Below, one piece after another: positions 9,353 through 41,850 of a stretch of 64,000 nt of DNA. Position 1 is the first letter of the stretch, and each line of letters opens with the position of its first letter. The notes beneath the pieces were generated by a model. It did no database searches, had not been told where the DNA came from, and saw nothing but the letters and a program-made list of their open reading frames with translations. Both the position numbers and the translations under genes were made by a program. The DNA comes from Alphaproteobacteria bacterium (lineage in GTDB: Bacteria; Pseudomonadota; Alphaproteobacteria; Rickettsiales; UBA3002): positions 9,717 to 73,716 of the forward strand of contig JANNSK010000008.1 in the NCBI GenBank assembly GCA_031402515.1. Reading direction: 5' to 3'.

Positions 9353-9772
9353 TTACCTGCGCGACACAACCCACGCATCCGCTGACCATTTGCCCGCGCC
9401 CTGTGTGAGCAGAACGGCAAGCAGCATCGCCCAATAAACGTGCTGGATATTCTGGTCGTAGGTGAACTGGATGACCGCCGTCATGGCGATAAGTGGTAAC
9501 GTGGCAAGCCGTGCCGCAAGCCCCAATACCAGCAATGCTGGGCAGACAAGCTCAAAGAGCGTGGCACTATAAGCCGCAAAGATCGGCGGGACAAATGGCA
9601 CCTGATACTCGTCACGAAACAGGGCAATCGTATTCGCCATATCGCTGATTTTTACCATGCCAGAGAGGAAAAACACCCGCGCCATCCAGAGCCGGACGAT
9701 AAGCAGCAGGGCTGGAGAAAGCTGTGGCGCAATGGTAAGGAAGCGATTGTATAGTTTCATGATTGCTGGCAT
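9353..9772 (-). CDS. doxX: DoxX family membrane protein
   Basis: 139 aa, four TM segments, DoxX-like LLIVRLWMARVFFLSGMVK motif. Preceded by a SigF-type promoter. Confidence 0.8.
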   Translation of the reverse strand: MPAIMKLYNRFLTIAPQLSPALLLIVRLWMARVFFLSGMVKISDMANTIALFRDEYQVPFVPPIFAAYSATLFELVCPALLVLGLAARLATLPLIAMTAVIQFTYDQNIQHVYWAMLLAVLLTQGAGKWSADAWVVSRR

Positions 9773-9806
9773 AAATCCTCATTCGATTGAGTTTCGTATC
9801 CCTTCA

Positions 9807-9832
9807 TTCGAAGGTCAAGCGCGAATGGTTAC
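9807..9832 (-). promoter_or_regulatory. ECF (SigF/ECF16-type) promoter GTAACC-N16-CGAA driving doxX
   Basis: The reverse strand reads TGTAACCATTCG cgcttgacctt CGAAT. The spacer is exactly 16 nt. The site is about 35 nt upstream of the doxX ATG. Confidence 0.75.
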
Positions 9833-10376
9833 ATCGGCATCCGCAACGTCCCCGAACCTCACCGCGCTGATGCAGCTCACGCTGGATGGCGATAAGACTG
9901 CCTATCAGGAGTTCCTCACTCAGGTATCGCGTTACCTGCGCCGTTTCATCGCCCGCAGCATCCCTGCTTCGGATGTGGAGGATGTACTACAGGAAGTGCT
10001 TATTTCCATCCATAAAGCACGACATACCTATGATGGCAAACGCGCGGTGCTACCGTGGGTATCGGCCATCGCCCGCTACCGGATAAGCGATTACCTGCGC
10101 CAGCATTATGCCGCGATGCGGCAATCACAGGTTGATTTGGCCGATGTCGAGGATTTTATCGCCGCCCCTGTAACCGAAACCAGCGAAACCGGCGAATCTA
10201 TCCTTGAGGAAGTGGGACAATTGCCGGAACGCCAACAGAAGATTCTGTATTTGCTACATACCGAAGGCTACACCGCTAAGGAGGTGGGGGCCAAACTCGG
10301 CATGCGGGAATCAGCAGTGAAGGTAGCGGCCCACCGAGCCTATAAGGTAATTCGGGCAAGATTGAGTAGTTCATGA
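9825..10376 (+). CDS. sigF: ECF sigma factor (sigma-70 family, SigF-like)
   Basis: Region 2 and region 4 motifs (DVEDVLQEVLISIHK, ILYLLHTEGYTAKEVGAKLGMRESAVKVAAHRA). Its stop overlaps the anti-sigma start (ATGA). The start is taken at an internal ATG because the longer ORF overlaps doxX. Confidence 0.85.
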   Translation: MVTSASATSPNLTALMQLTLDGDKTAYQEFLTQVSRYLRRFIARSIPASDVEDVLQEVLISIHKARHTYDGKRAVLPWVSAIARYRISDYLRQHYAAMRQSQVDLADVEDFIAAPVTETSETGESILEEVGQLPERQQKILYLLHTEGYTAKEVGAKLGMRESAVKVAAHRAYKVIRARLSSS

Positions 10377-11008
10377 GTGATACACAACAGTTAATTGTCG
10401 CGCTTTCGGCGGACGCCAGACCAGTCATGCCGATGATGGTGCCCAGTCGCCTCGCGCTGCGCCTATCCGCCCTGCTCGCTGCCTACGCGCTCGTGATGGC
10501 ACTGATGCTAGGCCTGCGCGAAGACATTGGAACATACTGGCATCAACCAGTGTATCTTACTGAATTGCTTGCACTGTTTGCACTGGCAGCGGCGAGTATT
10601 ACCGCCTCGGTATTCCGCGCATTTCCGGACCAGTATCAGTACGACACGGTGCGCCACCTACCGGCCGTGGCGTTTGCCGTGTTTTTCGCCTTACTCGCAT
10701 TCCAGTTCTGGCTACCAGGTACACCATCGCCCGTCAACGCCCATGGGATGGAATGCGCGATTTGCATTGGAGCGGTTGCGATTATTCCATCGGCCATCGC
10801 CATGTATCTCATCCGGAAAGGCGCCAGCACGAAGCCACTTCTATCGGGCATGTATGCGGTGCTGGCTTGCGCCGCTATCGGCTGCCTTGTGCTGCGGCTC
10901 ATCGAAGCCAATGATGGCCCCACCCACCTCCTGCTATGGCACTATTTTCCGACACTGGGTTTTGCCGCCCTCGGAGGTATCGCCGGGAAATTCTTACTAA
11001 AATGGTAG
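10373..11008 (+). CDS. nrsF: DUF1109 / NrsF-type membrane anti-sigma factor
   Basis: 211 aa, six predicted TM segments, translationally coupled to the ECF sigma. This is the architecture of Caulobacter NrsF. Confidence 0.75.
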   Translation: MSDTQQLIVALSADARPVMPMMVPSRLALRLSALLAAYALVMALMLGLREDIGTYWHQPVYLTELLALFALAAASITASVFRAFPDQYQYDTVRHLPAVAFAVFFALLAFQFWLPGTPSPVNAHGMECAICIGAVAIIPSAIAMYLIRKGASTKPLLSGMYAVLACAAIGCLVLRLIEANDGPTHLLLWHYFPTLGFAALGGIAGKFLLKW

Positions 11009-11009
11009 T

Positions 11010-11035
11010 GTAACCATTCGACTTGAACTCTCGAA
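11010..11035 (+). promoter_or_regulatory. ECF (SigF/ECF16-type) promoter GTAACC-N16-CGAA driving the DUF2282-MNIO-DUF2063 operon
   Basis: TGTAACCATTCG acttgaactct CGAAT with an exact 16-nt spacer. It shares a 12-nt identical -35 block with the doxX promoter. Confidence 0.8.
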
Positions 11036-11108
11036 TAGACAGGCGTAAGCGTTGCTTGCCCGGGACTATTCCGGTTTCAAACCACTCCAATTTTTGAAAG
11101 GTATTGTT

Positions 11109-11384
11109 ATGAAAAAGCTTCTTCTCACTGCTGCTCTTGCTGGCATCACTGCGGCTACATTCTCGGTTGCTCAAGCCGCCGACGACGCTGCTGCCGCCAA
11201 GGAAAAATGCTACGGCATCGCCAAAGCTGGTAAAAACGATTGCAAATCGGCCGATGGTGCGAATTCCTGTGCAGGCCACTCCAGCAAAGACAACGACCCG
11301 AACGTCTGGAAATTCGTTGCCAAGGGTGAGTGCGAAAAAATGGGCGGCATGTCCGATGCACCAAAAACACCGAAGTCGATGTAA
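11109..11384 (+). CDS. bufA: DUF2282 secreted Cys-containing peptide (bufferin BufA1-type RiPP precursor)
   Basis: Sec signal [23 protein letters not shown]. The core has four Cys ([25 protein letters not shown]...KGECEKMGG). It sits directly upstream of the MNIO gene. Confidence 0.8.
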
Positions 11385-12281
11385 TTGCCTTTTGTTTGTT
11401 TAGGAAAAGGGCTCCCGGTAACCTACCGGGGGCCCTTTGACTCTCGAGTGACATTTACCTCACAGCTTGGATTCGGCCTTGGCCTGCGCGCACCGCATTA
11501 CACGGAAGTGCTACGCGAAAAACCAACACTCGGCTGGTTTGAGATTATTTCCGAGAATTATATGGAAGCCCATCGCGGCTATCTCGACTATCTAGCCGAC
11601 CTCCGCGCACACTATCCTATCGTCATGCATGGCGTATCACTCTCCATCGGCTCCACCGACCCGCTCGACGACGACTATCTAAAAAAACTCAAAGCACTGG
11701 CTGAACATATCGAAGCGCCGTGGATTTCTGACCATCTGTGCTACACGGGCGTCGGCGGCAAAAACACGCACGACCTGTTGCCCCTGCCCTATACGGAAGA
11801 AGCGCTGGAACATATCATACCGCGCATCCAAAAATTACAAGACACGCTGGGCCGCGCCTTCGTGTTCGAGAATGCCTCGACCTATCTCGAGTTTGACGGC
11901 TCGACTATCAGCGAACCAGAATTCTTTGGCGAACTCTGTGCGCGCACCGGCTGTGGCATCCTGCTCGATGTCAACAACGTCTATGTTTCAAGTTTCAATC
12001 ACGGCTGGGATGCGAAGGCGTACATCGACGCGATTCCCACAGCATCCATCGCGCAATACCATCTTGCCGGACACACCAATAAAGGCAGCCACCTCATCGA
12101 CACTCACAACAACCATGTGATCGACGCGGTGTGGGATCTCTATCGTTACACACTGCAAACCAAGGGCATGAAAAGCACCATGATTGAGTGGGACGATGCT
12201 ATCCCAGAATTTTCTGCATTGATGGCGGAACTCGACAAGGCGCGCGCCGTGGCCGATGCGGTGGAAAGGAAAGCTGCATGA
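11385..12281 (+). CDS. bufB: MNIO family enzyme (DUF692/UPF0276; BufB/MbnB-like)
   Basis: TIM-barrel-like DUF692 pattern (GFGLGLRAPHY...WFEIISENYM...HGVSLSIGS...SDHLC...FENASTY...LLDVNNVYVS...HLAGH). The ORF opens right after the bufA stop. The true start is unresolved (TTG at 11385 or a downstream GTG). Confidence 0.85.
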   Translation: MPFVCLGKGLPVTYRGPFDSRVTFTSQLGFGLGLRAPHYTEVLREKPTLGWFEIISENYMEAHRGYLDYLADLRAHYPIVMHGVSLSIGSTDPLDDDYLKKLKALAEHIEAPWISDHLCYTGVGGKNTHDLLPLPYTEEALEHIIPRIQKLQDTLGRAFVFENASTYLEFDGSTISEPEFFGELCARTGCGILLDVNNVYVSSFNHGWDAKAYIDAIPTASIAQYHLAGHTNKGSHLIDTHNNHVIDAVWDLYRYTLQTKGMKSTMIEWDDAIPEFSALMAELDKARAVADAVERKAA

Positions 12282-13027
12282 GCTACGCTTCACAGCTCGC
12301 ATTATTAAACGAGGCAATCGTTGAAGAGTGTTATGGCGCGATGCTGCCTACTATCAAGCACACGCGAACGCATGAGATTTCTGCTGAAACACGGCTGGGA
12401 GTTTACGTGAATGGCTACATGGAGCGGTTACTCAAAGCGGTGCTAGCTGATTACCCGGCGCTCACGCATTACCTTGGCACAGCGCGCATGAACGATATAG
12501 TACGAGCCCATGTGCAGAAAAATCCGTCGCTCCATTGGGATCTCAACCGTTACCCGATCAGTTTCTCCGCATGCTTCACGAATACATCGGAAGACCGCGC
12601 AGCAATTGCGGTAGCGCAACTCGAAAGCACCATCGCTGACGTTTTCTGGATGCCAGAGAGTGCGCCACTGAACGCAGAAACATTGGCCACATTGTCCATG
12701 GAGCAACTTTCCGCAACACATTTCAAGCCGCGCGTAGCGCTACGACTTTTGAAGCTTGATTGCGCTGCCAATGCGTTCTTACAAGCGTTTCGTGATGGGG
12801 AACCGCCGACGGCCATCGCGGCTGAAGAGGAATATCTTTGCGTGGTACGCCATGAAAACGATGTGCGACGTATCGTGCTAGAACCAACCGAATACACGCT
12901 GCTTCACGTGATGTTCAGTGGCGTGCGTTTTGACAGGGCGCTTGATAGCATTAATGATCCCGCACTCACTGAAAAACTACCTCGCTATCTCGCGCGTTGG
13001 CTAAAGCATGGTCTCTTTGTCGCCTAA
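12278..13027 (+). CDS. bufC: DUF2063 protein (MNIO partner, BufC-like)
   Basis: Its ATG overlaps the bufB stop (ATGA). About 250 aa. Position and size match the DUF2063 partner of DUF692 enzymes. Confidence 0.7.
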   Translation: MSYASQLALLNEAIVEECYGAMLPTIKHTRTHEISAETRLGVYVNGYMERLLKAVLADYPALTHYLGTARMNDIVRAHVQKNPSLHWDLNRYPISFSACFTNTSEDRAAIAVAQLESTIADVFWMPESAPLNAETLATLSMEQLSATHFKPRVALRLLKLDCAANAFLQAFRDGEPPTAIAAEEEYLCVVRHENDVRRIVLEPTEYTLLHVMFSGVRFDRALDSINDPALTEKLPRYLARWLKHGLFVA

Positions 13028-13188
13028 TATTTCCTTTTCCATTTTGGAAAAACCGAGCAACTCAGAACTGGGGGCCTCAAGACACGGGCTGCAGCAGCAA
13101 AACACCATCAAGGCACAACCGGACCACTAAGCCAAAAACACACTGTGTTTACTAATAAATACCCGACAGTAAAGTTTATTGATATTGG

Positions 13189-15261
13189 CTAGCCTACGGC
13201 AAGCCGCTCGGCGGCAGCGCCTTCCTTCAACCACTCGCGGCCACCTTGATTGTCGAGATAATGCATCAACGCGCTAACCACCCTGCGATCAAAATGCTTG
13301 CCGGTATCGGCATGCAGAATCTCGATCACCTCATCCCACGCCATCGCCGGACGATAGGATCGCGGTGAAACCATACCTACCAGCGCGTTGGCAACCGCAA
13401 TAATACGCGCCGAGATAAGCACGTCCTGCCCGTTCATGTTCAGCGGGCCGGAGCCGTCCATACGCTCTTGTGCCTGGCACAGTGTCTCGGCCACCGGACC
13501 ATGGAAAGCGATATTTCTTAGTAAATCGGCTGTCGCGGCGAGCGAACTCCTGATAGTCGCTCGCTCGGCATCGTTGAGCACGCCGTCACGGGTAAGCAGG
13601 CCCGCCGGAATATCAGCCTTGCCGAGATTCATCAACTGCGCGGCGGTGGCGGTCGTCTCCACGGTGACACTGTCGAGACCCATAATGCGCGCAGTGGCAG
13701 CTGCAACTTCAGCCACCTGCGCTGAATGGCGGGCGGCATGCGGATCGCGCTTGTCGACCAGCGAGACCAGCATGGACACAAGCTTTTTCAGCGTATCAAC
13801 GCGCAGTTCGCGCTCCTCGATCATCTCGGTCACGTCCTGCTCAGCAATGAGTACGCCGCGCGTGGGCATCCTTACCCCCTCGACTGGAATGCGGGAAAGC
13901 GGTACAAAACGCGCATGGATGGTGCGCAGACCGCGCTCGTCGCTACGCTCGATCAGCCGCGTTTCGTTACGATCATATTCTAGCGCAAGTTGGCATGGTT
14001 CGTTCACCGCCTGTGCGAAGGCTTTACCCATTGCGTTGGCGATCGACTTGCCGCGTGGCTCCTTATCGCCGAGCAACATCAATTCCGCCGCGCGATGATT
14101 GGCGAACCACAGGCCGAGATATTCATCAACGATATAGAGCGGCTCGGGTTGGTTGTCGGTAACGGCCGATAATAGCTCAGCGCGCGCTCCCCACTCTTCA
14201 GCAAGTGCCGACTGCGCACGCGCCACCGCGTTCCGCCAGATGGCGACCACCGTTGCGGTTAAGGCAGCCAGCAGCAGTAGGATGGCAATCGCCACCGTAT
14301 TACGCCATACGGTTGTTTGCGCCAACGCCTCGGCTCGGTCGATTTTGGCGATTAGTACCCATGGCGTGCCAGCGACTGCGCGCGCGGTGAAGAATACCGG
14401 TTGGCCACGATAGTCGATCTTTTCAGCGAATTCGCCGGTATGCGCTAGCGCATGGACCGCAGCAGAACTCTCACTCAACGGCTCGGCATGACTCATCAAC
14501 GGCGACTGATCGAGCAGTGGCGTAAGGTAACGGACATTCTTTCCCTCCGCACGCACCAGCATTACTTCAAGCGTCTGTTCAGGCGTCGGTTGCGGCGCGA
14601 GTAGCGCGAAGAAGCCGCCATCGAGCAAGCGGACACCAACCAGTCTGCCGGTTTGCGCGGCAGGTGAACGGTCCTGCTGTACGCCATAAATCGGAATCAC
14701 GAAGCCCAGTCGCTGGGCACCGCTATCTTCCTGCGTGATGTCAAGCAGCGAGCTTTCACCACGTGGCGCCAGCGTCAGTTTCTCGGTCAAGCCCCCGGCC
14801 AGTGGTGGCATATAGTCCGTCGCCATGACGAGTTTGCCACTGTTATCGATCAGTGCCAGACCGCCACTACCGAGTTTGCGCACATTGGCGCCGATCTGCT
14901 GCTGGAGTGTCGGTGTCGATGGCTCAAAACCCAAGCGTTGCGACGTCATGGTCATCAAGCTGCGCAGATATTCTGCCTGCGCGAGTGGTTCGCCATCGGC
15001 TTGCGCCTGAAGCTGGGTGAAATAAATCTGCAGCGAGGCGTTGTCAGCGAGGCTGGATAGCTCGCGGAACTGGTTTTGTACCCACCCACTAACACCGCGC
15101 GCCTGCGTATCGGCGATGAGGTTGAGTTTATCGCGCCACTGCGCCGTATCGCGCGCGCGTTCATGCTGCAGGAACAAAGCAAGGCTGGCAATACCCGCCG
15201 CGCCAATAAGGAGAATAATGGAACCGATTCCCAAGCGAGACCGAGAAAGCCGAGCGCGCAT
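13189..15261 (-). CDS. Membrane sensor: TM - large periplasmic (Cache-like) domain - TM - PAS-like - degenerate HD-GYP domain
   Basis: 690 aa with TMs at about aa 10-30 and 321-342. The C-terminal domain aligns to HD-GYP but reads DPHAARHS / LMNLGK / AQERMDGSGP instead of D.YT..HS / LHDIGK / HHE..DGSGYP. Confidence 0.8.
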   Translation of the reverse strand: MRARLSRSRLGIGSIILLIGAAGIASLALFLQHERARDTAQWRDKLNLIADTQARGVSGWVQNQFRELSSLADNASLQIYFTQLQAQADGEPLAQAEYLRSLMTMTSQRLGFEPSTPTLQQQIGANVRKLGSGGLALIDNSGKLVMATDYMPPLAGGLTEKLTLAPRGESSLLDITQEDSGAQRLGFVIPIYGVQQDRSPAAQTGRLVGVRLLDGGFFALLAPQPTPEQTLEVMLVRAEGKNVRYLTPLLDQSPLMSHAEPLSESSAAVHALAHTGEFAEKIDYRGQPVFFTARAVAGTPWVLIAKIDRAEALAQTTVWRNTVAIAILLLLAALTATVVAIWRNAVARAQSALAEEWGARAELLSAVTDNQPEPLYIVDEYLGLWFANHRAAELMLLGDKEPRGKSIANAMGKAFAQAVNEPCQLALEYDRNETRLIERSDERGLRTIHARFVPLSRIPVEGVRMPTRGVLIAEQDVTEMIEERELRVDTLKKLVSMLVSLVDKRDPHAARHSAQVAEVAAATARIMGLDSVTVETTATAAQLMNLGKADIPAGLLTRDGVLNDAERATIRSSLAATADLLRNIAFHGPVAETLCQAQERMDGSGPLNMNGQDVLISARIIAVANALVGMVSPRSYRPAMAWDEVIEILHADTGKHFDRRVVSALMHYLDNQGGREWLKEGAAAERLAVG

Positions 15262-15333
15262 AAACCATCCCTTTTTTTGGTGTTAGGGAATGTTGGTTTA
15301 GCTCAGGAGTGGCGCCGGGACAACCGGTTTATA

Positions 15334-16014
15334 CTACCTATACGCCCACCATGATCGGCTATTGATGGCGTAGATGGGACGGTAGTGATAGATATTTGCC
15401 TCGTTGGTAACAGAACTTGCCTGATTATCGAGCAGGTAGCGCTCGCCACCCGACTTCACCTCGAGAACCGCATGCATAATACCACCTAAGTTATTGTCCT
15501 GTACAATGATGATGCGCATCGAGGACTCGGGTACGCCCAAGCGCTTGAGCGAAATGAACTTGGCAATAGCGTAATCCTCGCAGTCACCGCCGCGGCTCAT
15601 GAACTCGTATGGCGTCTGCCAGTAATCCTCAACACCAAGATTATCTTTGTCCTCGACATATTTGATATCGTTGAAGAAATCATTGACCGCATCGAGCTTC
15701 GCCTCCAGTGAATTGCCGCTCTGTTCGCTGAGCATTCTTTCCCAGCGGCGCGCATCGCAATCATCATCTTTACACTGCTTATCGGCTTCGGCTTTTTCTC
15801 GATTGTAACGCGGCATCAACGAGGTCCATTTGGTGAAGGCGGAAAGGTCACCCGAGCTGGTCTGTTGTGAGGAGAGCAAGGGGTTCGAGATTGCATGCGC
15901 CATGCCCGGAAGCATCAGGAAAACGGCGAAGAGCAGTATGCTTGCCGCCATCATCCGTTTCGGGAAGAGGGTCTGACATGTGGTAATCCGGGTTTTATGT
16001 AAGCAATCCACCAT
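15334..16014 (-). CDS. Periplasmic transglutaminase-like cysteine peptidase (BTLCP, LapG family)
   Basis: Signal peptide MMAASILLFAVFLMLPGMAHA (likely start about 15954). Catalytic Cys/His/Asp context is GGDCEDYAIAKF ... IMHAVLEV ... LLDNQ. Confidence 0.85.
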   Translation of the reverse strand: MVDCLHKTRITTCQTLFPKRMMAASILLFAVFLMLPGMAHAISNPLLSSQQTSSGDLSAFTKWTSLMPRYNREKAEADKQCKDDDCDARRWERMLSEQSGNSLEAKLDAVNDFFNDIKYVEDKDNLGVEDYWQTPYEFMSRGGDCEDYAIAKFISLKRLGVPESSMRIIIVQDNNLGGIMHAVLEVKSGGERYLLDNQASSVTNEANIYHYRPIYAINSRSWWAYR

Positions 16015-16165
16015 CCTTTTGATGATACGTGGACATGCTTGAAGAATGCTTAATTATGGAAACAATTGTAGCAATTAGAATTCTATTAACCAGTTGATAT
16101 AAATGGTATAAATAGCTACATTTTTACTCAATTCCTAGCGAAACAGCAAAAAACTTATTGCCCGT

Positions 16166-17026
16166 TTATAATTTCGCGCGGGCAAGATCTAGCAACCGCG
16201 TCCAGTTCGAGGACGAGGCCAGCGCGAGGTAAATAAAGCCCAGCCAGTTCTTCTGGCGGAAATCGAGGAAAATCTCCGGCGGCAGTTCATTAAATGCCTT
16301 CTCGTTAATCATCAGGAATCCGCTAAGCTGGATATCTTTCCCCTTCAGCGTCGCCTTGAAATTATACGGCGTCAACAGATTGTGCTGCTTGAGCTCACGG
16401 CAAAGGGTTTTCGTCACCGCCATATGCTGGTGGAATGACGTACAGAATTCCAGCGCGCGCTTGGTGAACTCGCTCGGCTCGCCCGCCTTGTCGAATAGCG
16501 GTGTAGCACCGCGCTTGGTTTTTACCGAATATTCCGGCGCACCCTCATCAAGCGAGAGGAAGAATTTCGCGTTGGTGGGGTCGCGGAAAAAGATGAACGG
16601 GTATTGGCGCACATAGGCGGGGACATAATGGTCCTGCCGCCAGCGACCGCTGCTATGAATGAAATAATTATCCTCGCCGCAGCCTAATACCGCAAGCGGC
16701 AAGGGCTGCTCAGGATCGGCGGTGAATACGATGGGATAGCTTTTCGCCGCCTCGACAAACTCCACAGCATTCAGCATGACGGAATTCGTGCCCCTGGCGA
16801 ATTTCATATCATGCATGGGCGCCAGGCTTGCCATGGCGTGACGGGTTTTATCGAGCACCGTCGGCGCCTTGAAGAATAGCGGCAGGTTCGACGGCGCTTC
16901 GCTGAGCTTAGACGCCACACTGGCGGATGACTTAGCGGCGGTCACCGGCCGTTTCGGCGTGTAGCGTTTCACCTTTGCCACTTTCTTTAGTTCTTTCGTT
17001 TTTGTCTTACCATTGGCCACAGTCAC
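16166..17026 (-). CDS. SapC family protein with a Lys-rich N-terminal extension
   Basis: SapC-like core (NAVEFVEAAKSYPIVFT ... YVPAYVRQYPFIF). 286 aa. Confidence 0.7.
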   Translation of the reverse strand: MTVANGKTKTKELKKVAKVKRYTPKRPVTAAKSSASVASKLSEAPSNLPLFFKAPTVLDKTRHAMASLAPMHDMKFARGTNSVMLNAVEFVEAAKSYPIVFTADPEQPLPLAVLGCGEDNYFIHSSGRWRQDHYVPAYVRQYPFIFFRDPTNAKFFLSLDEGAPEYSVKTKRGATPLFDKAGEPSEFTKRALEFCTSFHQHMAVTKTLCRELKQHNLLTPYNFKATLKGKDIQLSGFLMINEKAFNELPPEIFLDFRQKNWLGFIYLALASSSNWTRLLDLARAKL

Positions 17027-26160: not shown

Positions 26161-26207
26161 AGCCTGCGATGGTATCCCTAGCGCATTATCGATGCAAGGA
26201 GAGCACG

Positions 26208-27872
26208 ATGCCCCAGACAAAAACCGCCCCCAACCGACGGATCGTCACCGCCCCGCGCGGCAATACACTGAACGCGAAATCATGGCTCACTGAAGCGCCC
26301 TTGCGCATGCTGATGAACAATCTCGACCCGGAGGTCGCTGAAAACCCCGATGAGCTTGTCGTCTATGGCGGCATCGGCAAGGCGGCGCGCAACTGGGAAT
26401 GTTTCGACGCCATCGTGGCAAGCCTGAAAGCACTGGAGAAAGACGAAACACTGCTGGTGCAATCGGGCAAGCCGGTCGGCGTGTTCAAAACGCACACGGG
26501 CGCGCCGCGCGTGCTCATCGCCAACTCGAACCTCGTACCGCACTGGGCAAACTGGGAGCATTTCCGCGAACTCGATAAGAAGGGCCTCATGATGTACGGG
26601 CAAATGACCGCAGGCTCGTGGATTTATATCGGCAGCCAGGGCATCGTGCAGGGCACGTATGAAACCTTCGCCGAAATGGGCCGCCAGCATTACAAGGGCG
26701 ACCTCTCCGGCAAGTGGATTTTGACCGGGGGGTTGGGCGGCATGGGCGGCGCACAACCGCTGGCGGCCACCATGGCAGGTGCGTCGATGCTCGCTGTTGA
26801 GTGCGACCCCACGCGCATCGAGAAACGGCTACAAACAAAATATCTCGATAAGAGTGCGACGACGCTCGATGAAGCACTCGCACTTATCGAACAATCCAAA
26901 ACGCCGATCTCTGTCGGCCTGCTCGGCAACGCGGCGGATGTGTTTTCCGAACTCGTCAAGCGCGGCGTCCGGCCCGATGCGGTGACCGACCAGACATCGG
27001 CGCACGATCCGCTCAACGGCTATTTGCCACAGGGCATGACCATGGCGGAAGCGGCAGCATTGCGCGCGAAGAATCCCGCAGAGATGATCAAACGCGCCAA
27101 GGATTCGATGGCGGTGCAAGTCCGCGCGATGCTGGCGTTCCACACACAAGGTATTCCGGTGTTCGACTATGGCAACAACATCCGCCAGATGGCGCAGGAG
27201 GCGGGCGTAAAAAACGCCTTCGATTTCCCCGGCTTCGTGCCAGCTTACATTCGTCCGCTATTTTGTCGTGGCATTGGGCCGTTCCGTTGGGCGGCTTTGT
27301 CGGGCGATCCTGCGGACATAAAAAAGACAGACGATAAAGTGCGCGAGCTACTGCCGGAAAATAAATCCCTCATGCGCTGGCTGGATATGGCGAGTGAGCG
27401 TATTAAGTTTCAAGGATTGCCCGCGCGTATTTGCTGGGTGGGCTTGGGCGACCGCGCCAAGCTCGGGCTTGCATTCAACGAAATGGTGGCGAGCGGCGAG
27501 CTTTCTGCGCCCATCGTCATCGGCCGCGACCATTTGGATTCCGGTTCCGTCGCCTCCCCCAACCGCGAAACGGAAGGGATGAAAGATGGCTCCGACGCCG
27601 TGTCCGACTGGCCGCTGCTCAACGCGCTGCTCAATACCGCTTCGGGTGCGACATGGGTCAGCCTGCATCACGGCGGAGGTGTCGGCATGGGTTTCTCGCA
27701 ACATGCGGGCATGGTCATCGTCGCCGACGGCAGCGCCGACGCGGCGCGGCGATTAGAAAGAGTGCTCACCAACGACCCCGCCACCGGCGTCATGCGCCAT
27801 GCCGACGCGGGCTACGAACTTGCGATTGAGTGCGCGAAAGAGAAGGGGCTTAAGTCGCCGATGGTTTCTTAA
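26208..27872 (+). CDS. hutU: Urocanate hydratase
   Basis: Unmistakable HutU sequence ([22 protein letters not shown]). Start taken at MPQTKT. Confidence 0.95.
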
Positions 27873-27949: not shown

Positions 27950-28645
27950 ATGATAAGAAAAGAAATGCTTATGAAATTTGAATTACAGTTACGAAAAAGA
28001 AACAACTCAAAAGACGACCTCATTGCCGATTTACAGAAAATTGCCAGTGAAATTGAGCAAAGTACCCTTACTGCATCTGTTTATGCGGAAAAGGGAAGAT
28101 ACGGCGTCAATACAATGCTGCGGCGTTTTGGTTCTTGGAATAATGCGCTCAAAGCCGCTGGGTTAAAACTGAGTAACCGCCTTAATATCCCTGACGAGGA
28201 ACTTTTTGAAAATCTCGCATATGTGTGGCAAACTCTTGGTCGCCAACCAGTTGGCAAGGATGTAGAAAAATCTCGCGGTTTGTCTAAATTTTCACTGGGA
28301 ACATACGAAAAAAGATTTGGCACATGGAACAAAGCACTCGAAGGCTTTATCAACTATATCAATAAAGATGAAACTGCCGAAAGAACGCTGGCAGAACCTG
28401 CTAAAACTAAATCCAGTCAAAGGCGAACAACTAAGAAAATCAACTGGCGTTTACGCCATATGATCCTTGTTAGGGATAACTGCATTTGTCAAATGTGCGG
28501 CACTTCCCCTGCAAAAGACCCAGATACAGAATTACATGTAGACCATATCATACCGTGGACAAAAGGCGGAGAAACACTTTCAGAGAATCTTCGGACACTT
28601 TGTTCTAAATGCAATATTGGAAAGAGCGATTTATTAATAGAGTAG
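27950..28645 (+). CDS. HNH endonuclease with two N-terminal homing-endonuclease-associated repeats
   Basis: Repeats ...YGVNTMLRRFGSWNNALKAAGL and ...LGTYEKRFGTWNKALEGF. HNH core is CQMCG...HVDHIIPWTKGG...NLRTLCSKCNIGK. Visibly AT-richer than its neighbours. Confidence 0.85.
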   Translation: MIRKEMLMKFELQLRKRNNSKDDLIADLQKIASEIEQSTLTASVYAEKGRYGVNTMLRRFGSWNNALKAAGLKLSNRLNIPDEELFENLAYVWQTLGRQPVGKDVEKSRGLSKFSLGTYEKRFGTWNKALEGFINYINKDETAERTLAEPAKTKSSQRRTTKKINWRLRHMILVRDNCICQMCGTSPAKDPDTELHVDHIIPWTKGGETLSENLRTLCSKCNIGKSDLLIE

Positions 28646-28710: not shown

Positions 28711-30240
28711 TTATTTGAGTAACTCCCCGCTCTTCACCAGCGCATAAACCGCTTCGATATCCGGCCCAAGGATGCGGTCTTTTTTGAGGAACGGCACACG
28801 CTTGCGGATTTTGGCTTTGACCTTCTCCAGCTTCGGTGAGGTTTTGAGTGGTTTGAGCATATCAAGGGCCTGGGCGGCGACGAGCAGTTCGATGGCGATG
28901 ACGTAGCGCGCATGTTCGATGACTTTCAATGCCTTAAGGCCGGCGCCGGGCCCCATCGAGACATGGTCTTCCTGGTCGTTATTCGTAGGGATAGAATCGA
29001 CACTGGAGGGGAAACTTAACGATTTGCACTCGCTGACCAGCGCGGCAGCGGTGGTCTGGATCATCATCAACCCGGAGTTCAAACCACCGTCTTCGATCAG
29101 GAATGCAGGCAGGCCGCTTTTCTCCGGCTTCATCGCGCCGTTGATGCGGCGTTCGGAAATCGCCGCCAGTGTGGCCAGTGCGGCAGCGATACGGTCACAC
29201 ACCCGCGCCGGGTAAATCGCATGGAAGTTGCCGCCGTGGATGACTTCCTCACGGTCGGGGAATAGCAGCGGGTTGTCTGTCGTCGCGTTGATTTCATTTT
29301 CGAGGATTTCTTTGGCGTGGGAAAGTTCCTCCCACACCATACCATGCACCTGCGGCGCGCAGCGCAGCGAATAGGCGTCCTGCACCTTGTCGCAATGCGC
29401 GTGGCTTTTTTCGATTTCAGTGCGCCCCAGCCATGTCGCAATCGCGCGGCCACATTCAAGCGTTCCCTTCTGGCGCTGCTCTTTCAGCAACGGCGTGTCG
29501 GTCAGGTGGTGACTGGCGCGCATGGCCTCGACCATCATCGCCGCCGCGAGGTTCGCCGTGTCGAGTAATTGCGAGGCCTCCGACCACGCCTTCACCGCCA
29601 TCGCCGCCGTGAGTTGTGTGCCGTTGATGAGGCAAAGACCCTCTTTGGGTCCAAGCTGAATCGGTTTGAGTTTGGCTTTTTTCAGCGCCGTGTCTGCGCT
29701 CGCCCGCGCGAAGCCTTTACCGCTCGGCATGGTGCATTCACCCTCGCCAATCGTCGTGAGCACCGCATGGGCGGAAGGCGCTAAGTCGCCCGAGGCGCCG
29801 ACACTGCCGCGCGCGGGCACGCAGGCGAGGATGCCTGCCTCAATCGTTTTGATGATCTGTTCGAGCTTGGAAAGCGCGAGGCCGCGATGGCCGCGACAGA
29901 CGGAATTGAGCAGGATAATCCACATCGACAGCACGAGGTCGCGCGGAAGTTCCTCCCCGACACCGCAGGCATGCGAGCGGATAATGTTGCGCTGAAGCTC
30001 GGCGATCTGGTTAGGCTTAATGCGTGTTTTGGCGAAATAGCCGAAGCCGGTATTCAGCCCGTAAACCGTCGCGCCACTACGCACGAGCTTGTTCAGGAAT
30101 TTTTCTGCGGCGGACACACGCTTCTTCGCTGACTCGCCAACACGGATTTTTAGCTTCGCCTTCGGTTCAAGCGCCAGTGCGGAAAACGCTACCAGTGTTT
30201 CAACATCCAGTGATTCGCCATCAATCATAATCTCAGCCAT
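28711..30240 (-). CDS. hutH: Histidine ammonia-lyase
   Basis: MIO-forming GSVGASGDL motif. 509 aa. Confidence 0.95.
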   Translation of the reverse strand: MAEIMIDGESLDVETLVAFSALALEPKAKLKIRVGESAKKRVSAAEKFLNKLVRSGATVYGLNTGFGYFAKTRIKPNQIAELQRNIIRSHACGVGEELPRDLVLSMWIILLNSVCRGHRGLALSKLEQIIKTIEAGILACVPARGSVGASGDLAPSAHAVLTTIGEGECTMPSGKGFARASADTALKKAKLKPIQLGPKEGLCLINGTQLTAAMAVKAWSEASQLLDTANLAAAMMVEAMRASHHLTDTPLLKEQRQKGTLECGRAIATWLGRTEIEKSHAHCDKVQDAYSLRCAPQVHGMVWEELSHAKEILENEINATTDNPLLFPDREEVIHGGNFHAIYPARVCDRIAAALATLAAISERRINGAMKPEKSGLPAFLIEDGGLNSGLMMIQTTAAALVSECKSLSFPSSVDSIPTNNDQEDHVSMGPGAGLKALKVIEHARYVIAIELLVAAQALDMLKPLKTSPKLEKVKAKIRKRVPFLKKDRILGPDIEAVYALVKSGELLK

Positions 30241-32964: not shown

Positions 32965-35900
32965 CTAGTTGATGATCGTGAAGTCAGCGGCTGTCAGCGC
33001 TATCTTGGTGCTGACCAAGGCAATCTGCACTGCTGCACCGGCACCGCTGCCGTCTGCATCGTAGTACAGTTTGCCGTTCGACGTGTTGTAGATGAGGAAG
33101 TCGTCAGCATCCACTGCCGCCGCAACCCCTGCGCCGGAGATGAAGTGCGCAGCGTTCAACGCACCGACACCGCCGATGAAGGCCGCAGTGAAGATGTCGT
33201 TATCGAGCTGGAAGCTGTCGTCACCGTTAACAACCGACGAGAAGTCCTTGAGGGTTTTGAGGTTGGCAGTACCCAGCGCGGTATCGAACAGGAAGACATC
33301 GTCCCCGGCTTCACCGTAGAGTTTGCTGTCCTTGCCCAGGCCGCCGTTGATCGTGTCGTTGACAGCACCGCCTCGAATCTCGTCGTTGCCGTCGCCGCCG
33401 TTGAGTTCGTCAGCACCCGCCTCGCCGTAAAGCTTGTCGTTACCGCCATCGCCGTTCAGCGTATCGTCACCATCAGCACCGCCACCCAGGCTGTCGCCAC
33501 CATAGAGCTTATCGTTGCCGAGGCCACCGTTGAGCTCGTCCTCATCGTCACCGCCGACGAGCGAATCGGTACCATCACCGCCGTTCAGCGTATCCTGGTT
33601 GGCCTCGCCGTAGAGCTTGTCGCTGCCGATATCACCGTTGAGTTCATCATCATCACTGCCGCCGGTGATAGAGTCGTTACCGTCACCGCCGTTGATGGTG
33701 TCGTCCTCATCGTCGCCGTCAAGGGTATCCTTGCCGAGACCGCCATCGATGGAGTCTTCATCGTTACCGCCGTTAATATCGTCATTGCCGTCGCCGCCGT
33801 CGATCGTGTCCTCACCGTTGCCGCCGGTGATGGTGTCTTTATCGGTACCACCATCGAGCGAATCGTCGCCGCCGTCACCGTCGATCGAGTCATCGTCGTC
33901 ACCGCCGTCAACGGTGTCGTTATCGTCGCCCCCAGCGATCGTATCATCGCCAGTTTCACCAAGGATCGAATCGTCCTCTGTGCCGCCGGTGAGCGAATCG
34001 TTACCGGCACCGCCTTCCAGCGTGTCCTCATCACCTTCACCGTGCAGCGTATCGTTACCGACACCGCCGAGAAGCGAATCATCACCGGCACCGCCGCTGA
34101 TGGAGTCATTGCCAGCAAGGCCGTCGATGTCATCACCGCTTGCCAAACCGGCAATCGTGTCGTTGCCCGCCGTGGTAAGGCCGGTGACGGTGAGTGTATC
34201 ACCCGCATCGAAGATGAGTGCGCCAAGTGCGGCATACTGAGTCGTGTTGATCGTTGCCGCGTTGTCGGTCAGGTCGATGATATCAATGCCCGCCGTACCG
34301 AGCGCGGTAATTGCACCCGCTGTCAACGCGGCTAATTGGGCGCCGCTCATCGTCAGCGTGACCACGTCCGCACCGGTGAGGGTCACCGTACCCAGCGCGT
34401 CATACTGCGCTTTGGTCAGCTCCAGCACGTTATTGGTGGCGTTGAGGATATCGATGCCATCGCTGTCAAGGTCACCGATCTCGCCTGAGGTAAGCGCCGC
34501 GATATTGGCGCCGGTATCAGCAAGGGTAACCACGTCCGCCGGAGTGAGCGCGATGGTGTTTTGGAATGCGTCCTCGTACTGTTCAACGGTCAGCGACAGC
34601 ACGTTGTCGGAAGCATTGAACGTCACTGACGCGCTAAGATCATCGAGCGCTACCATTTGCAACGCTGTCAGCGCTGCCAGGTTAGCACCTGTATCGACAA
34701 CCGTGATCGCGTCAGTCGCATCCACGTCAACGCCGCTATCGGCCAGCGCCGCAGCCTGTGCCGCAGTGAGTGTGATCGCGTTGGTTGAGGAGTTGATGCT
34801 GTCGACGAGATCATCATCGAGATCACCGATGGCCCCCGCCGAGAGCCCGGCAATGTTGGCACCGGTGTCGGTTAATGTCACAGCATCACCCGCCGTAAGC
34901 ACTGTCGTGCCCAGCGCACTATATTGCGCTACCGTGAGTGACAAGACGTTGTCGGACGTGTTGATCGCATCGAAATTGGCGTTATCCAGCGCGGCAAAAT
35001 CCGCTGCGGAGAGCGCCGCAACGTTAGCGCCGGTATCCACCAGCGTGACGGTATCACCGCTTGCTGCAACCCCGCCGTTATCGATAAGCGCCTCTGCTTG
35101 CGCGGCGGTGAGGTTCAGCACGTTGTTGTCGGTCGAATCGAAGATATCCACACTTCGCGAAGAGGCAATGTAGACGGCCATCGCCACCGCACTCAAGCCT
35201 TCGATATTGGCCTGGGTATCGGCGAGAGTGAGTGTATCGCCGCCAGAGAAGGTGAGTGCAACTGCGGCATCCCACTGCGCTTTGGTAAGGCTGATCGCGT
35301 TGTCGGTAGCATCGACAGCATCGACAAAGAAACCATTCAAGTTCGCGATGTCCACTGTCGTCAGCGCCGCAATGTTGGCACCCGTATCCGCCAGGGTGAT
35401 CGTATCACCGGCGACAAGCACCGTTGTACCCAGTGCAGCGATCTTAGCTGCCGTGAGCGATAAAACGTTGTCCGAAGCGTCGATGATATCCACACCGGCG
35501 TTATCGAGTGCACCAATCTGGCCCGCGGAAAGCGCGCCAATGTTCGCACCGGTATCCGCCAAGGTGACCGCGTCACCTGCAGCGATAACAACCGTGCCCA
35601 GTGACGAGGCTTGCGCCGCCGTGAGGGAAATGGCGTCGTCGGAAGCGTTGATCGCATCCACACCGGCGTTATCGAGTGCCGCGATTTGCGCAGCGCTCAT
35701 CGCGGCGATGTTGGCACCGGTATCAACAACGGTGACCACGTCACCCGCAGCAATGACCACCGAGCCCAGCGCGGTCGCTTGCGCAACGCTCAGGTTGATT
35801 GCGTTGTCGGACGCATCGATTGCATCGACGTTGGCACCCGCCATGGCGGCGATGTTGACGGTCAAGATAGCGGCAATGTTGGCGCCGGTATCAACCACGG

Positions 35901-38900
35901 TAACCGTATCAGCGGAAGTGAAGGTTTTGTTGACGCCCGTCACTGCACCCACTTGGTCGGCGGTGAGGTTCAGCGCGTTGTTGGTGGAATCGAATACATC
36001 CACACCCTGCGAAATATAGCTGCCGAAGTTGCCCGATGTCAGCGCCTCGATGTTGGCTTGCGTATCGGTCATGGTGACCACGTCAGCGCCGGTCAAGGCG
36101 ATCGCCGTACCGTCGGCCAGCGCATCGAGCTGGGCGATGCTCAGGCTGAGCACGTTGTCGGTCGCATCCCACGTATCCACGTTGGAAAGCGCGTTAATCG
36201 CCGCAGCGCCCTGCGCCGCGAGGTTGGCACCGGTATCTGCCATGGTAACGGCATCACCGGCAGTGAGTGCAATACCACCGAGCGCGCCATATTTAGCCAC
36301 CGTGAGGCTGAGTACGTTGTCGGTCGCGTTGATGGTCACCGAATTCGCGCCGGCTTCAATGACGGCCAGCGCGGTGATCTGACCGACCGACAGCGCAGCA
36401 ATGTTGGCGCCCGTATCGGCAATCGTGACATCATCAGTCGCAGCGACAGTGGTGGTGCCGAGCACGGCAGCTTGCGCTGCGGTGAAGGTGATGACGTTGT
36501 CCGAAGCGTCGAAAATCACTGCCGCGGCCAGACCGTCAAGCGCGGTAATTTGGCCAGCGGTAAGGCCGCCAATGTTAGCGCCGGTATCAGCAATCGTGAT
36601 TGTATCGGTAGCATCGACAGTAATATCGCCCAGCGCCGCTGCCTTTGCAGCCGTCAAGGTAATCGCGTTGTCCGAAGCGTTAATGAGCACCGTGGCGGCG
36701 AGTGCCGCGAGGTCGGTGAAGTCGGCAGCAGCCATGGCACCGATAGCTGCACCCGTATCCGCCACGGTGAGCGTATCGGAGGAGTGAACGGTGACATCGC
36801 CCAGCGCCGAAGCTTTCGCTGCGGTCCAGGTGAAGGCGTTGTCGGAAGCGTTGAGGAGTACGGTGCCGGAAAGGCCAGCCAGTACGCCGATTTCACCAGC
36901 GCTGAAGCCACCGATGGCCGCACCGGTATCCACCACGCTAAGTGTGTCAGTGGCGTGAACACCAACACCAGCCAGGGCCGCTGCTTTCGCCACATCCCAT
37001 GTAAAGGCGTTGTCGGAAGCGTTGATAACAACGGTGGCCGCCAAGCCGTCCAGCGCAGTGATCTGGCCCGCGGTCAGCGCACCGATATTCGCACCGGTAT
37101 CGACAATGGTAACCGTGTCGGAGACAGCAATATCAACCGTGCCCAGCGCGATGGCTTGTGCCACGGTGAGGCTGATGGCGTTGTCGGAAGCGTCGATAAC
37201 ATCAACGTCATAGCCAGCCGCGTCGAGATCACCAATGTTTGTTGAAGAAAGCGCTGCGATGTTAGCGCCTGTATCAGCCAGCGTGACGGTGTCACCGGCG
37301 GTGAGCAGGACATCACCCAAGGCCAGGAACTGCGCGGCAGTCAGTGAGTAGGCGTCGCCGCCGGTGTCGTCGAAGGTCACCGTGGCGTCTTTATCAGCAA
37401 GATTATCGATCTGAGTGGAGGTCAGCGAGCCGATATCCGCATCCGAGACCAAGACTGCATCACCTGCGATGAGGGAAATGTCGCCAATAACGGCTGCCTT
37501 TGCGACATCCAGTGTGTAAGCGTTACCGCCGGTATCGTCGAAGACGATAGAAGCGGCTTTGCCAGCAAGATTGGAAATCTGGCCAGAGGTCAGCGCGCCG
37601 ACATCACCATCGAGGATAGTGACCGTGTCCGTCGCAGCGAGCGAAATACCGCCGAGAACCGCCGCCTGAGCCACACTCAAGGAGTAAGCGTTATCCGACG
37701 CGTCGATAGTGACCGCGGCGGAAAGCGCATCAAGGATAGTGATCTGACCCGCGGTCAGGTCATCGATATTGGCGCCTGTATCCGAAATGGTGATCGTGTC
37801 GGACGCCGCAACATCCACCGCGCCCAGCGCCGCAGCTTGTGCGGCAGTGAAGGTGATGGCGTTGTCAGTGGCGTCGATAGCATCCACACCCGCACCAGCG
37901 AGCGCCGCGATGTTGGCTGCCGACAGGCCTTGAATGTTGGCGGCGGTGTCAGACAAGGTAACCGTGTCGCCGTTATTGAGGTTCACCGCACCCAGCGCGT
38001 TGAACTGCGCCACTGTGAGGCTGAGCGCGTTGTCCGACGCGTTGATCACGTCGATAAGTTTCGCTGCAAGACCGCCGATAGTACCAGCACTCATCGCGGC
38101 GATGTTGGCACCCGTATCGAGGATGGACACAACGTCGGCCCCGGTGAGCGTGAGCCCACTACCGAGTTCCGCAACTTGCGCCACCGTAAGCGAAAGCGTG
38201 TTGCCACTGGAATCGAGCACGACTGCCGCATCCTTGGCCGCCAGGTTCGCGAGCTCAACCGTCGTCAGAGCAGCAAGGTTGGCACCGGTGTCAGCTACTG
38301 TAACCGTATCGCCTGCAGCAAGGACGAGATCGCCGACAGCCGCGGCTTTGGCCGCCGTCAACGTGTAGGCATCGCCGCCGGTGTCATTAAGGGTAACGGT
38401 GGCGTCCTTGTCGGCAAGGTTATCGATCTGGATTGACGTCAACGCACCGATATCGCCATCTGATACCAATACCGCATCCGAGGAATGTAGCGCAATATCG
38501 CCGACAACCGCAGCCTTGGCCACGTCGAGCGTATAAGCGTTACCGCCCGTGTCGTCGAAGATGACGGAAGCGGCAAGGCCCGCGAGATCCGTAATGTCGG
38601 CAGCAGCCAGTGCGCCAATATCAGCATCCGAAACGGTAAGCGTATCGGTTGCATCCACCGTGATGTCGCCCAGCGCCGCTGCTTTGGTCGCATCCCAGGT
38701 GAAGGCGTTGTCCGACGCATTGATGAGTACTGTGCCGGCGACTCCGGCGAGATCGCCGATATCCGCTGCGGAAAGACCGCCAATGTTGGCGCCCGTATCC
38801 GAAATCGTAAGCGTATCGGAAACATCAACGGCAATGCCAGCAAGCGCGGCTGCCTTTGCAGCGTCCCAGGTGAAGGCGTTATCGGAAGCGTTAATGGTCA

Positions 38901-41760: not shown

Positions 41761-41850
41761 GGAGAGGTGGCCGAGTGGTTTAAGGCAGCAGTCTTGAAAA
41801 CTGCCGTACTGGCAACGGTACCGTGAGTTCGAATCTCACCCTCTCCGCCA
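41761..41850 (+). tRNA. tRNA-Ser (anticodon UGA), CCA encoded
   Basis: Acceptor GGAGAGG/CCTCTCC, anticodon loop CTTGAAA, long variable arm, T-loop GTTCGAATC. Confidence 0.95.

Follow-up and report, generated by a model that had tools for sequence, protein, structure and literature searches.

A predicted DvhD/DvhG-type c-di-GMP receptor and protease pair encoded behind a SapC-family gene in an alphaproteobacterial contig

The LapD/LapG system is known from Pseudomonas fluorescens, and orthologues occur in Legionella (CdgS9), Bordetella, Vibrio and Shewanella (BpfD/BpfG). Here we describe three adjacent genes, encoding a SapC-family protein, a BTLCP cysteine protease and an inner-membrane receptor with a degenerate HD-GYP domain, in a 64,000-nucleotide stretch of alphaproteobacterial DNA (from contig JANNSK010000008.1; hereafter the window). 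The closest described relative of the protease and receptor is DvhD/DvhG (DVU1020/DVU1019) of Desulfovibrio vulgaris Hildenborough (Karbelkar et al. 2024 PNAS, PMC10990149; Font et al. 2026 Nat Commun, PMC13090378). DvhD consists of a transmembrane segment, a periplasmic domain, a second transmembrane segment, a PAS domain and an HD-GYP domain that lacks catalytic activity, and its gene lies beside that of the BTLCP DvhG (PMC10990149). The cytoplasmic part of DvhD binds cyclic diguanosine monophosphate (c-di-GMP) with a dissociation constant of 322 nM, and DvhD puts DvhG under c-di-GMP control when the system is reconstituted in P. fluorescens (PMC10990149). Structural work has since described the periplasmic domain as a dCache with a broken α1 helix and the HD-GYP dimer as holding three c-di-GMP molecules with no metals and no hydrolysis; binding splays the stalk helices of DvhD, and an AlphaFold 3 model seats DvhG on DvhD helix α1′ (PMC13090378). 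Signal peptides are likewise predicted for most DvhG orthologues, and homologues from the Alphaproteobacteria Kiloniella and Sneathiella appear in the supplementary tables of that study (PMC13090378). The cleavage consensus of LapG and DvhG is [T/A/P]AAG. The class of system is already published, and the window holds an alphaproteobacterial member of the DvhD/DvhG kind. A first-pass annotation of the window, made from the sequence alone, had known of no HD-GYP-based LapD analogue, a statement overtaken by the 2024 report of DvhD/DvhG and the 2026 structures.

The three open reading frames (ORFs) are intact and co-directional on the minus strand, at 16166–17026 (SapC, 286 amino acids (aa)), 15334–16014 (BTLCP, 226 aa) and 13189–15261 (receptor, 690 aa). 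The ORF listing gives gaps of 151 nt between SapC and BTLCP and 72 nt between BTLCP and receptor. The first-pass annotation had reported this layout with exact coordinates and gaps. Its gene assignments also agree with our results: a SapC-family protein by profile score, a BTLCP with signal peptide and Cys/His/Asp motifs by Pfam and by alignment to LapG structures, and a protein of transmembrane, periplasmic, transmembrane, PAS and HD-GYP segments, its motifs mostly lost, by Pfam, AlphaFold2 (AF2) and alignments. Its central proposal, a LapD/LapG-like switch built on a dead HD-GYP domain, is strongly supported by homology to DvhD, lost metal ligands, kept ligand contacts and conserved pairing. 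We consider it likely that the BTLCP and the receptor form an inside-out, c-di-GMP-gated periplasmic protease switch of the DvhD/DvhG type.

The receptor and its relation to DvhD

Both sequence and fold comparisons led from the window receptor to the DvhD structures. In a phmmer search of the PDB the receptor matched 9rc0 (E=8.6e-35) and 9rbz (E=1.6e-32), with the best catalytic HD-GYP protein at 2e-15, and a profile of the receptor family matched 9rc0 at E=4.5e-71 over 320 residues spanning PAS and HD-GYP. Foldseek, run with the receptor model against the PDB, likewise placed 9rc0 (first, TM-score 0.73) and 9rbz at the top, and the HD-GYP domain matched that of c-di-GMP-bound DvhD, 9rbz, with TM-scores of 0.86–0.89 at 36% identity. 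The DvhD dCache chain was found by fold comparison alone, neither a single-sequence search nor the family profile having retrieved it; here the DvhD periplasmic domain 9rc2 was the best dCache match (E=5.7e-8, TM-score 0.74, against 0.56–0.63 for other dCaches). The receptor is a DvhD homologue in all three modules. We also tried a receptor from a genome labelled Desulfovibrionaceae (L065) as a bridge to DvhD and set it aside, as it was not notably nearer to DvhD (E=3e-44) than the window's own family is.

The AF2 model of the receptor (pLDDT 83.1) places transmembrane helices at aa ~10–31 and ~320–343 around a periplasmic domain of ~285 aa. This domain (aa ~33–318; window 14308–15165, minus strand) has the dCache fold by Foldseek, so that LapD_MoxY_N, named as a candidate in the first-pass annotation, does not apply. 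Pfam returned no match to LapD_MoxY_N, HAMP, GGDEF or EAL. On the cytoplasmic side follow a PAS_4 domain at aa 369–456 (13894–14157, minus strand; 24.6 bits, cut-off 23.1), to which the family profile against 9rc0 also extends, and, joined to it by a helical stalk, an HD_5 domain of the HD-GYP type at aa 497–661 (13279–13773, minus strand; 101.4 bits, cut-off 27.2, E=5.8e-29), the predicted c-di-GMP module.

Alternatively, the receptor could work outside-in as an ordinary dCache chemosensor, or could be an active phosphodiesterase of c-di-GMP, its position beside a protease gene being incidental. Small extracellular ligands are usual for dCache domains, and both Pfam and NCBIfam match the receptor to HD-GYP phosphodiesterase families, the NCBIfam response-regulator phosphodiesterase model at a sub-threshold 81.5 bits (cut-off 400). 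The catalytic signature argues otherwise. In the window receptor HD is replaced by MN, HHE by AQE and the last metal-binding Asp by Asn, and GYP is reduced to G-P by deletion of the Tyr. Among 72 receptor orthologues, (M/L/I/V)N stands at the HD position in 71, Asn takes the place of the terminal metal Asp in 71, both His of HHE are missing from the residues common at their positions, and the GYP Tyr is deleted in most; the metal-binding residues are all replaced in 71/72. The same degeneracy is common to 28 full-length homologues (31–60% identity) and to 71 further orthologues drawn from species-representative genomes. It is a fixed, conserved state rather than recent decay. With the metal ligands HD, HH and the terminal Asp gone, the HD-GYP domain is predicted to be non-catalytic, and the homologous DvhD shows no hydrolysis.

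Conservation in the periplasmic domain also argues against a conventional chemosensor. Helix α1 of the receptor dCache is broken at aa 72–75, as in DvhD, and the α1/α1′ junction carries an invariant motif, L71-x-D-N74-A-S-L-Q78-I-Y80, the best-conserved part of the entire protein across the family. The strongest periplasmic conservation thus falls at a surface helix junction and not in a pocket. By analogy with DvhD, whose α1′ helix is the one modelled to bind DvhG, this junction is a candidate protease interface.

To compare the ligand sites, we mapped the residues named for DvhD (PMC13090378) onto the receptor; 11 identities fit one numbering offset in the phmmer alignment and make the mapping unambiguous. 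Four contacts of the canonical site are retained: L577 (L562 in the window; 72/72 orthologues), R650 (R634; 72/72), M646 (M630; 70/72) and Y652 (Y636; Tyr or Trp in 66/72). Two others are changed conservatively, K582 to R567 and E668 to D652, and DvhD Y523 corresponds to H508, a position that is aromatic or His in most orthologues. At the bridging site K520 is replaced by R505, conserved in 71/72 orthologues, and P567 is retained as P552. By alignment, the c-di-GMP contacts of DvhD appear mostly, not all, kept, and the HD-GYP domain of the receptor would, as in DvhD, bind c-di-GMP without hydrolysing it.

Several points count against so close a parallel. The GYP Tyr deleted here and in most orthologues is Y621 of DvhD, a contact to a c-di-GMP phosphate, and the peripheral bridging-site R569 is G554 in the window and is not conserved. 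Affinity, stoichiometry or the ligand itself could therefore differ from DvhD. Additionally, the periplasmic domains of the window receptor and DvhD are only 12% identical, and the way in which DvhD restrains DvhG is itself unproven (PMC13090378).

The BTLCP protease and its pairing with the receptor

The second gene encodes a BTLCP (Peptidase_C93; Pfam PF06035, 68.7 bits, cut-off 27). It contains the motifs GGDCEDYAIAKF, HAVLEV and LLDNQ, and its Cys, His and Asp are in register with those of LapG in the crystal structures 4FGO and 4U65_E (E ~1e-17). The catalytic Cys is flanked by Asp and Glu (GDCED), giving a D-C-E calcium/catalytic motif that matches the D316/C317/E318 logic of the DvhG calcium site. 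Read by eye, the N-terminus is a Sec-type leader, KR followed by AASILLFAVFLMLPG and AHA-I. The protein scored 91.7 bits against the NCBIfam LapG equivalog model NF045674, below the curated cut-off of 320. By these matches the window BTLCP is a LapG-like protease and not the gammaproteobacterial LapG equivalog.

We next consider how constantly protease and receptor occur together. Receptor relatives are encoded in 334 species-representative genomes. The best 80 of these are mostly Alphaproteobacteria, including Rhodospirillales, metagenome-assembled genomes labelled 'Rickettsiales', Dongia, Aestuariispira, Roseospirillum and Sneathiellales. The window itself comes from an uncultured member of the class, and the best match to its ArgH is at 70%. 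At the 80 loci, 77 of which have enough flanking sequence, tblastn with the window BTLCP as query found a BTLCP gene directly adjoining the receptor gene in 69/77. Of these pairs 31 are co-directional with the BTLCP upstream, as in the window, and 38 are divergent. Since the pairing is kept in two arrangements, it indicates a functional link and not inherited synteny. The neighbourhood survey across genomes proposed in the first-pass annotation thus supports a conserved BTLCP and HD-GYP pair. The genes pnp, parC, truB, rpsO, infB and recO are the commonest neighbours in one sublineage, which we attribute to synteny and not to function. An adjacency kept in 69 of 77 loci and in two orientations also speaks against incidental placement; together with the replaced metal ligands and the conserved helix junction, it makes a free-standing chemosensor or phosphodiesterase most improbable. 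We return to the reading of receptor and protease as one switch.

SapC, two-partner secretion and the candidate substrate

The SapC ORF covers positions 1–220 of the 220-position Pfam profile PF07277 with 204.5 bits (cut-off 28.9). It has no signal peptide and begins with a disordered, Lys-rich N-terminus, and the protein is presumably cytoplasmic. The AF2 model (pLDDT 87.9, pTM 0.78) has no fold neighbour in the PDB at E≤0.001, and a sequence search of the PDB returned no match. Alignment of the family showed 25 invariant residues, including H61, N79, E87, R138, D158 and E159. The sole functional statement found in our literature searches is a prediction as an 'uncharacterised enzyme' (Iyer et al. 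2010, PMC2938197).

In genome loci centred on SapC (~32 close homologues), the C-terminus of a giant protein is encoded directly upstream in 25, while a BTLCP gene follows in 7 and a receptor gene in 2. The giants belong to type Vb, or two-partner secretion (TPS), TpsB/TpsA systems, and a link of SapC to type I secretion systems (T1SS), as the first-pass annotation had it, finds no support. From its gene context SapC is primarily a TpsA companion, and it could serve the giant as a chaperone or modifier in the cytoplasm.

Giants of this kind are found with the protease and receptor in relatives from the window's own subclade. Of the seven metagenomic relatives examined (51–61% identity), six have the gene order giant β-helix protein, SapC, BTLCP, receptor, as does genome locus L001 (53%). 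The giants of this subclade measure 2029–4160 aa where full length is known, and in L090 a ShlB-type TpsB gene lies upstream of the giant. The full conserved order in the subclade, as read from these contigs, would be TpsB, giant β-helix TpsA, SapC, BTLCP, receptor. The TpsA giants have a signal peptide and the N-terminal TPS motifs NWQxFDI...LNRV...NPNGVFFG. Pfam did not report a TPS domain in the full-length L090 giant despite these motifs; the homologous TpsA of L092 has a recorded match to PF05860 (TPS).

The C-terminal ends of the TpsA giants share a module of LFSYAGR, LSLLN, one to three L-x-P-(A/K/Q/H/S)-A-G-G units and GN-x-FL, with a Cys...Cys tail in most. We noted it in L081, L087, L089, L090, L091, L092, L173, L001 and L017; it also occurs in clusters without an adjacent BTLCP gene, such as L092. 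Of the 11 TpsAs examined, 10 contain PAAGG, a motif whose background frequency is 0.023 per 1000 aa and which fits the LapG/DvhG consensus. TpsB and a TpsA with the C-terminal motif are encoded together with the protease in L001, L081, L087, L089, L090 and L173, and also in L011, L017 and L036. There is a precedent for such a substrate in CdrA of Pseudomonas aeruginosa, a type Vb TpsA that LapG cuts at a C-terminal TAAG (PMC4694147, PMC6156197, PMC8346871). By analogy with CdrA, the substrate in the subclade is most likely the type Vb giant β-helix TpsA with its C-terminal LxPAAGG.

Some observations weigh on the other side. The first Ala of the TpsA unit can be K, Q, H or S in some copies, and the TpsA of L026 is without any di-alanine copy, so the motif may serve another purpose. 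Many SapC-TpsA clusters have no adjacent BTLCP gene. Finally, no TpsA, TpsB or PAAG-repeat protein is encoded in the 64-kb window, and the substrate must therefore be encoded elsewhere in the genome.

TPS genes also flank the BTLCP-receptor pair, in other gene orders, at 7 of the 80 genome loci. Locus L011 has BTLCP, receptor, TpsB and TpsA, with SapC (L194) ~10 kb further on the same contig (JABDCC010000016.1), and L036 has BTLCP, receptor, a stretch of ~5 kb, TpsB and TpsA, with SapC (L183) ~20 kb away on the same contig (JAGVLO010000015.1). The permutation of the same five gene types within a conserved neighbourhood in these two loci supports a functional link. In at least 14 genomes the SapC/TpsA cluster and the BTLCP-receptor pair lie at separate loci, and the unlinked arrangement in the window is thus not unusual. 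One subclade relative, P0013 (L088, 4471–8652), has a short TpsA of ~814 aa with four PAAG motifs, no SapC gene, and a ShlB gene divergent from the BTLCP-receptor genes.

These separate loci bear on a further explanation, that the three window genes are an orphaned remnant, left without a substrate and decaying after a rearrangement removed TpsB and TpsA. In L001 and the six metagenomic relatives the gene directly upstream of SapC is that of the giant; in the window this place is taken, 164 nt upstream of the triad, by a divergent acyl-CoA synthetase gene. Yet none of the three ORFs is disrupted and none has lost a conserved motif, contigs from two samples carry the receptor, one of them together with SapC and BTLCP, and unlinked modules are normal, as the genomes with separate loci show. 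We regard the remnant explanation as very unlikely, and hold to a working switch with a substrate encoded elsewhere.

The remaining candidate substrate is within the window itself. The first-pass annotation had pointed to a giant RTX protein 17 kb away as a linked target. The protein does exist (2485 aa; window 32965–40422, minus strand), but its connection to a T1SS or to the switch is not supported and its association with the triad is not conserved. If it were the target, it would be secreted by a T1SS and held by an N-terminal plug like that of LapA or DvhA, with SapC serving as a T1SS factor as in Campylobacter fetus. The gene is on the same strand as the triad and the protein has 11 RTX stretches; the characterised Dvh system employs T1SS adhesins; and at 14 of the 80 genome loci, in other lineages, the BTLCP-receptor pair has RTX adhesin-like genes within 8 kb, one complete example (L045) with a LapA-like retention-module sequence.

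The features of the RTX protein itself do not fit this role. It starts directly with ~45-aa 'ADTGANIAALTAAQIAAL'-type repeats, RTX nonapeptides are confined to aa 2110–2360, and neither a retention module nor a [T/A/P]AAG occurs within its 2485 aa. No T1SS genes (the ATP-binding cassette, membrane fusion protein and TolC set) were found among the window ORFs scanned with Pfam. Its similarity to other loci is limited to the RTX nonapeptides; blastp without composition correction gave long alignments of 21–22% identity with the L081 giant, which we regard as compositional. Additionally, between the RTX gene and the triad lie ~16 kb of genes for the catabolism of fatty acids and histidine, and the conserved neighbour of SapC is TpsA, with no T1SS. 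We rejected the RTX giant as the substrate of the switch, and control of this protein by the switch is highly unlikely. The gene borders a tRNA-Ser (41761–41850), a phage-type integrase (42008–43222) and a stretch of low GC content (0.48–0.52 at 40–46 kb), and is probably at the edge of a genomic island, a further point against this role.

In the other alphaproteobacterial lineages, the pair is followed by large RTX adhesin-like genes in L045 (10182–16325, minus strand) and also in L031, L054, L055, L059, L066, L067 and L070. The encoded proteins combine TDGSETL-type repeats with a LamG-like region, and their RTX part is C-terminal. In the complete example, L045 (2048 aa), the LapA-like retention-module sequence is at aa ~110–190 and a TAAG at 354.

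Proposed model, neighbouring genes and comparison with known systems

We propose the following model for the DvhD/DvhG-type switch. The receptor would be an inner-membrane dimer whose degenerate HD-GYP domain binds c-di-GMP, and binding would change the stalk, the PAS domain and the transmembrane helices. At high c-di-GMP the dCache domain would restrain the secreted BTLCP, likely via the conserved α1′ helix, and a drop in c-di-GMP would free the protease. The freed protease may then cleave a di-alanine site in the periplasmic anchoring end of the giant surface protein, which would thereby be let go by the cell, with SapC as a putative cytoplasmic accessory of TpsA. A broader proposal is that an uncultured clade of Alphaproteobacteria recruited a DvhD/DvhG-type switch to type Vb secretion, with TpsA released at LxPAAGG and SapC as an obligatory third partner, and that the window holds the SapC-protease-receptor part, uncoupled from the substrate genes; for this the arguments on either side are evenly matched. 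Coupling of the switch to type Vb secretion and SapC, seen in the gene context of relatives and not in the window, is the only element that may be new, and we are roughly undecided between accepting and doubting it.

The locus extends an HD-GYP-based adhesin-release switch beyond the sulfate reducers in which it was characterised. The two-gene cassette appears portable, having RTX adhesin-like neighbours in some lineages and giants of two-partner secretion in others. In the TpsA giants the conserved LxPAAGG C-terminus offers a directly testable cleavage site, and the constancy with which SapC follows these TpsA genes is an entry point to a family that has been without a function for 25 years. 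The type Vb/SapC coupling, if true, would for the first time place the SapC family in a defined functional context.

A terminator-like hairpin with a T-run lies at 13053–13065 (minus strand), ~125 nt past the receptor stop codon in a consensus scan, and is possibly the end of a three-gene transcription unit. Such elements number three in the region against a shuffled mean of 4.4, which makes this weak evidence. Neither promoter nor terminator counts in the scan exceeded those expected from shuffled sequence, and the proposed operon therefore has the short gaps as its sole basis.

Directly downstream of the receptor gene, and convergent with it, is a bufferin-type cluster for a ribosomally synthesised and post-translationally modified peptide (9657–13027, plus strand). 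It comprises an extracytoplasmic function sigma factor (9657–10376), an NrsF anti-sigma factor (10373–11008), a BufA1/DUF2282 precursor (11052–11384), MbnB/DUF692 (11385–12281) and HvfC/DUF2063 (12188–13027), labels taken from the Pfam annotation of the identical contig L085. Further along, an HNH endonuclease with homing-endonuclease-associated repeats (27950–28645, plus strand) lies inside the histidine-utilisation cluster, between hutU (26169–27872) and hutH (28711–30240).

Among known systems, SapC of Campylobacter fetus and the SapC genes found in neighbourhoods of TonB receptors, tryptophan halogenases and JmjC proteins (PMC2938197) belong to the same Pfam family, PF07277. The context of SapC here differs: it follows a giant TpsA and precedes a BTLCP, with no T1SS or halogenase neighbours.

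Similar to LapD/LapG, an inner-membrane c-di-GMP receptor would govern the release of a giant surface protein by a periplasmic BTLCP; the genes for protease and receptor adjoin, and the proteases are homologous. The receptors are unrelated: where LapD has LapD_MoxY_N, HAMP and GGDEF-EAL, that of the window has dCache, PAS and HD-GYP, respectively, and the window BTLCP falls well under the LapG equivalog cut-off.

The parallel with CdrA/CdrB lies in the secretion partners. Relatives of the window locus have the BTLCP gene beside TpsB and a giant β-helix TpsA, whose C-terminus bears [P]AAG motifs, in most followed by two cysteines, and corresponds topologically to the part left in the periplasm. 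In contrast to CdrA and LapG, the receptor is DvhD-like rather than LapD, a SapC gene is intercalated, the unit LxPAAGG is repeated where CdrA has a single TAAG, the site here is a predicted one, and TpsA is absent from the window.

DvhD/DvhG remains the nearest system. T1SS genes are part of the Dvh operon, together with RTX adhesins that have TAAG sites and retention domains at the N-terminus, whereas the window subclade is linked to TpsB/TpsA and SapC, with no T1SS gene among the Pfam-scanned ORFs of the window. DvhG of D. vulgaris is membrane-anchored with a linker of ~180 aa, whereas the window BTLCP is short with a cleavable-looking leader. HD is MN in the window and SQ in DvhD, and identity is ~36% in HD-GYP and 12% in dCache. 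The receptor architecture is nevertheless identical (transmembrane segment, dCache, transmembrane segment, PAS, degenerate HD-GYP), and the adjacent gene in both encodes a BTLCP with the D-C-E motif.

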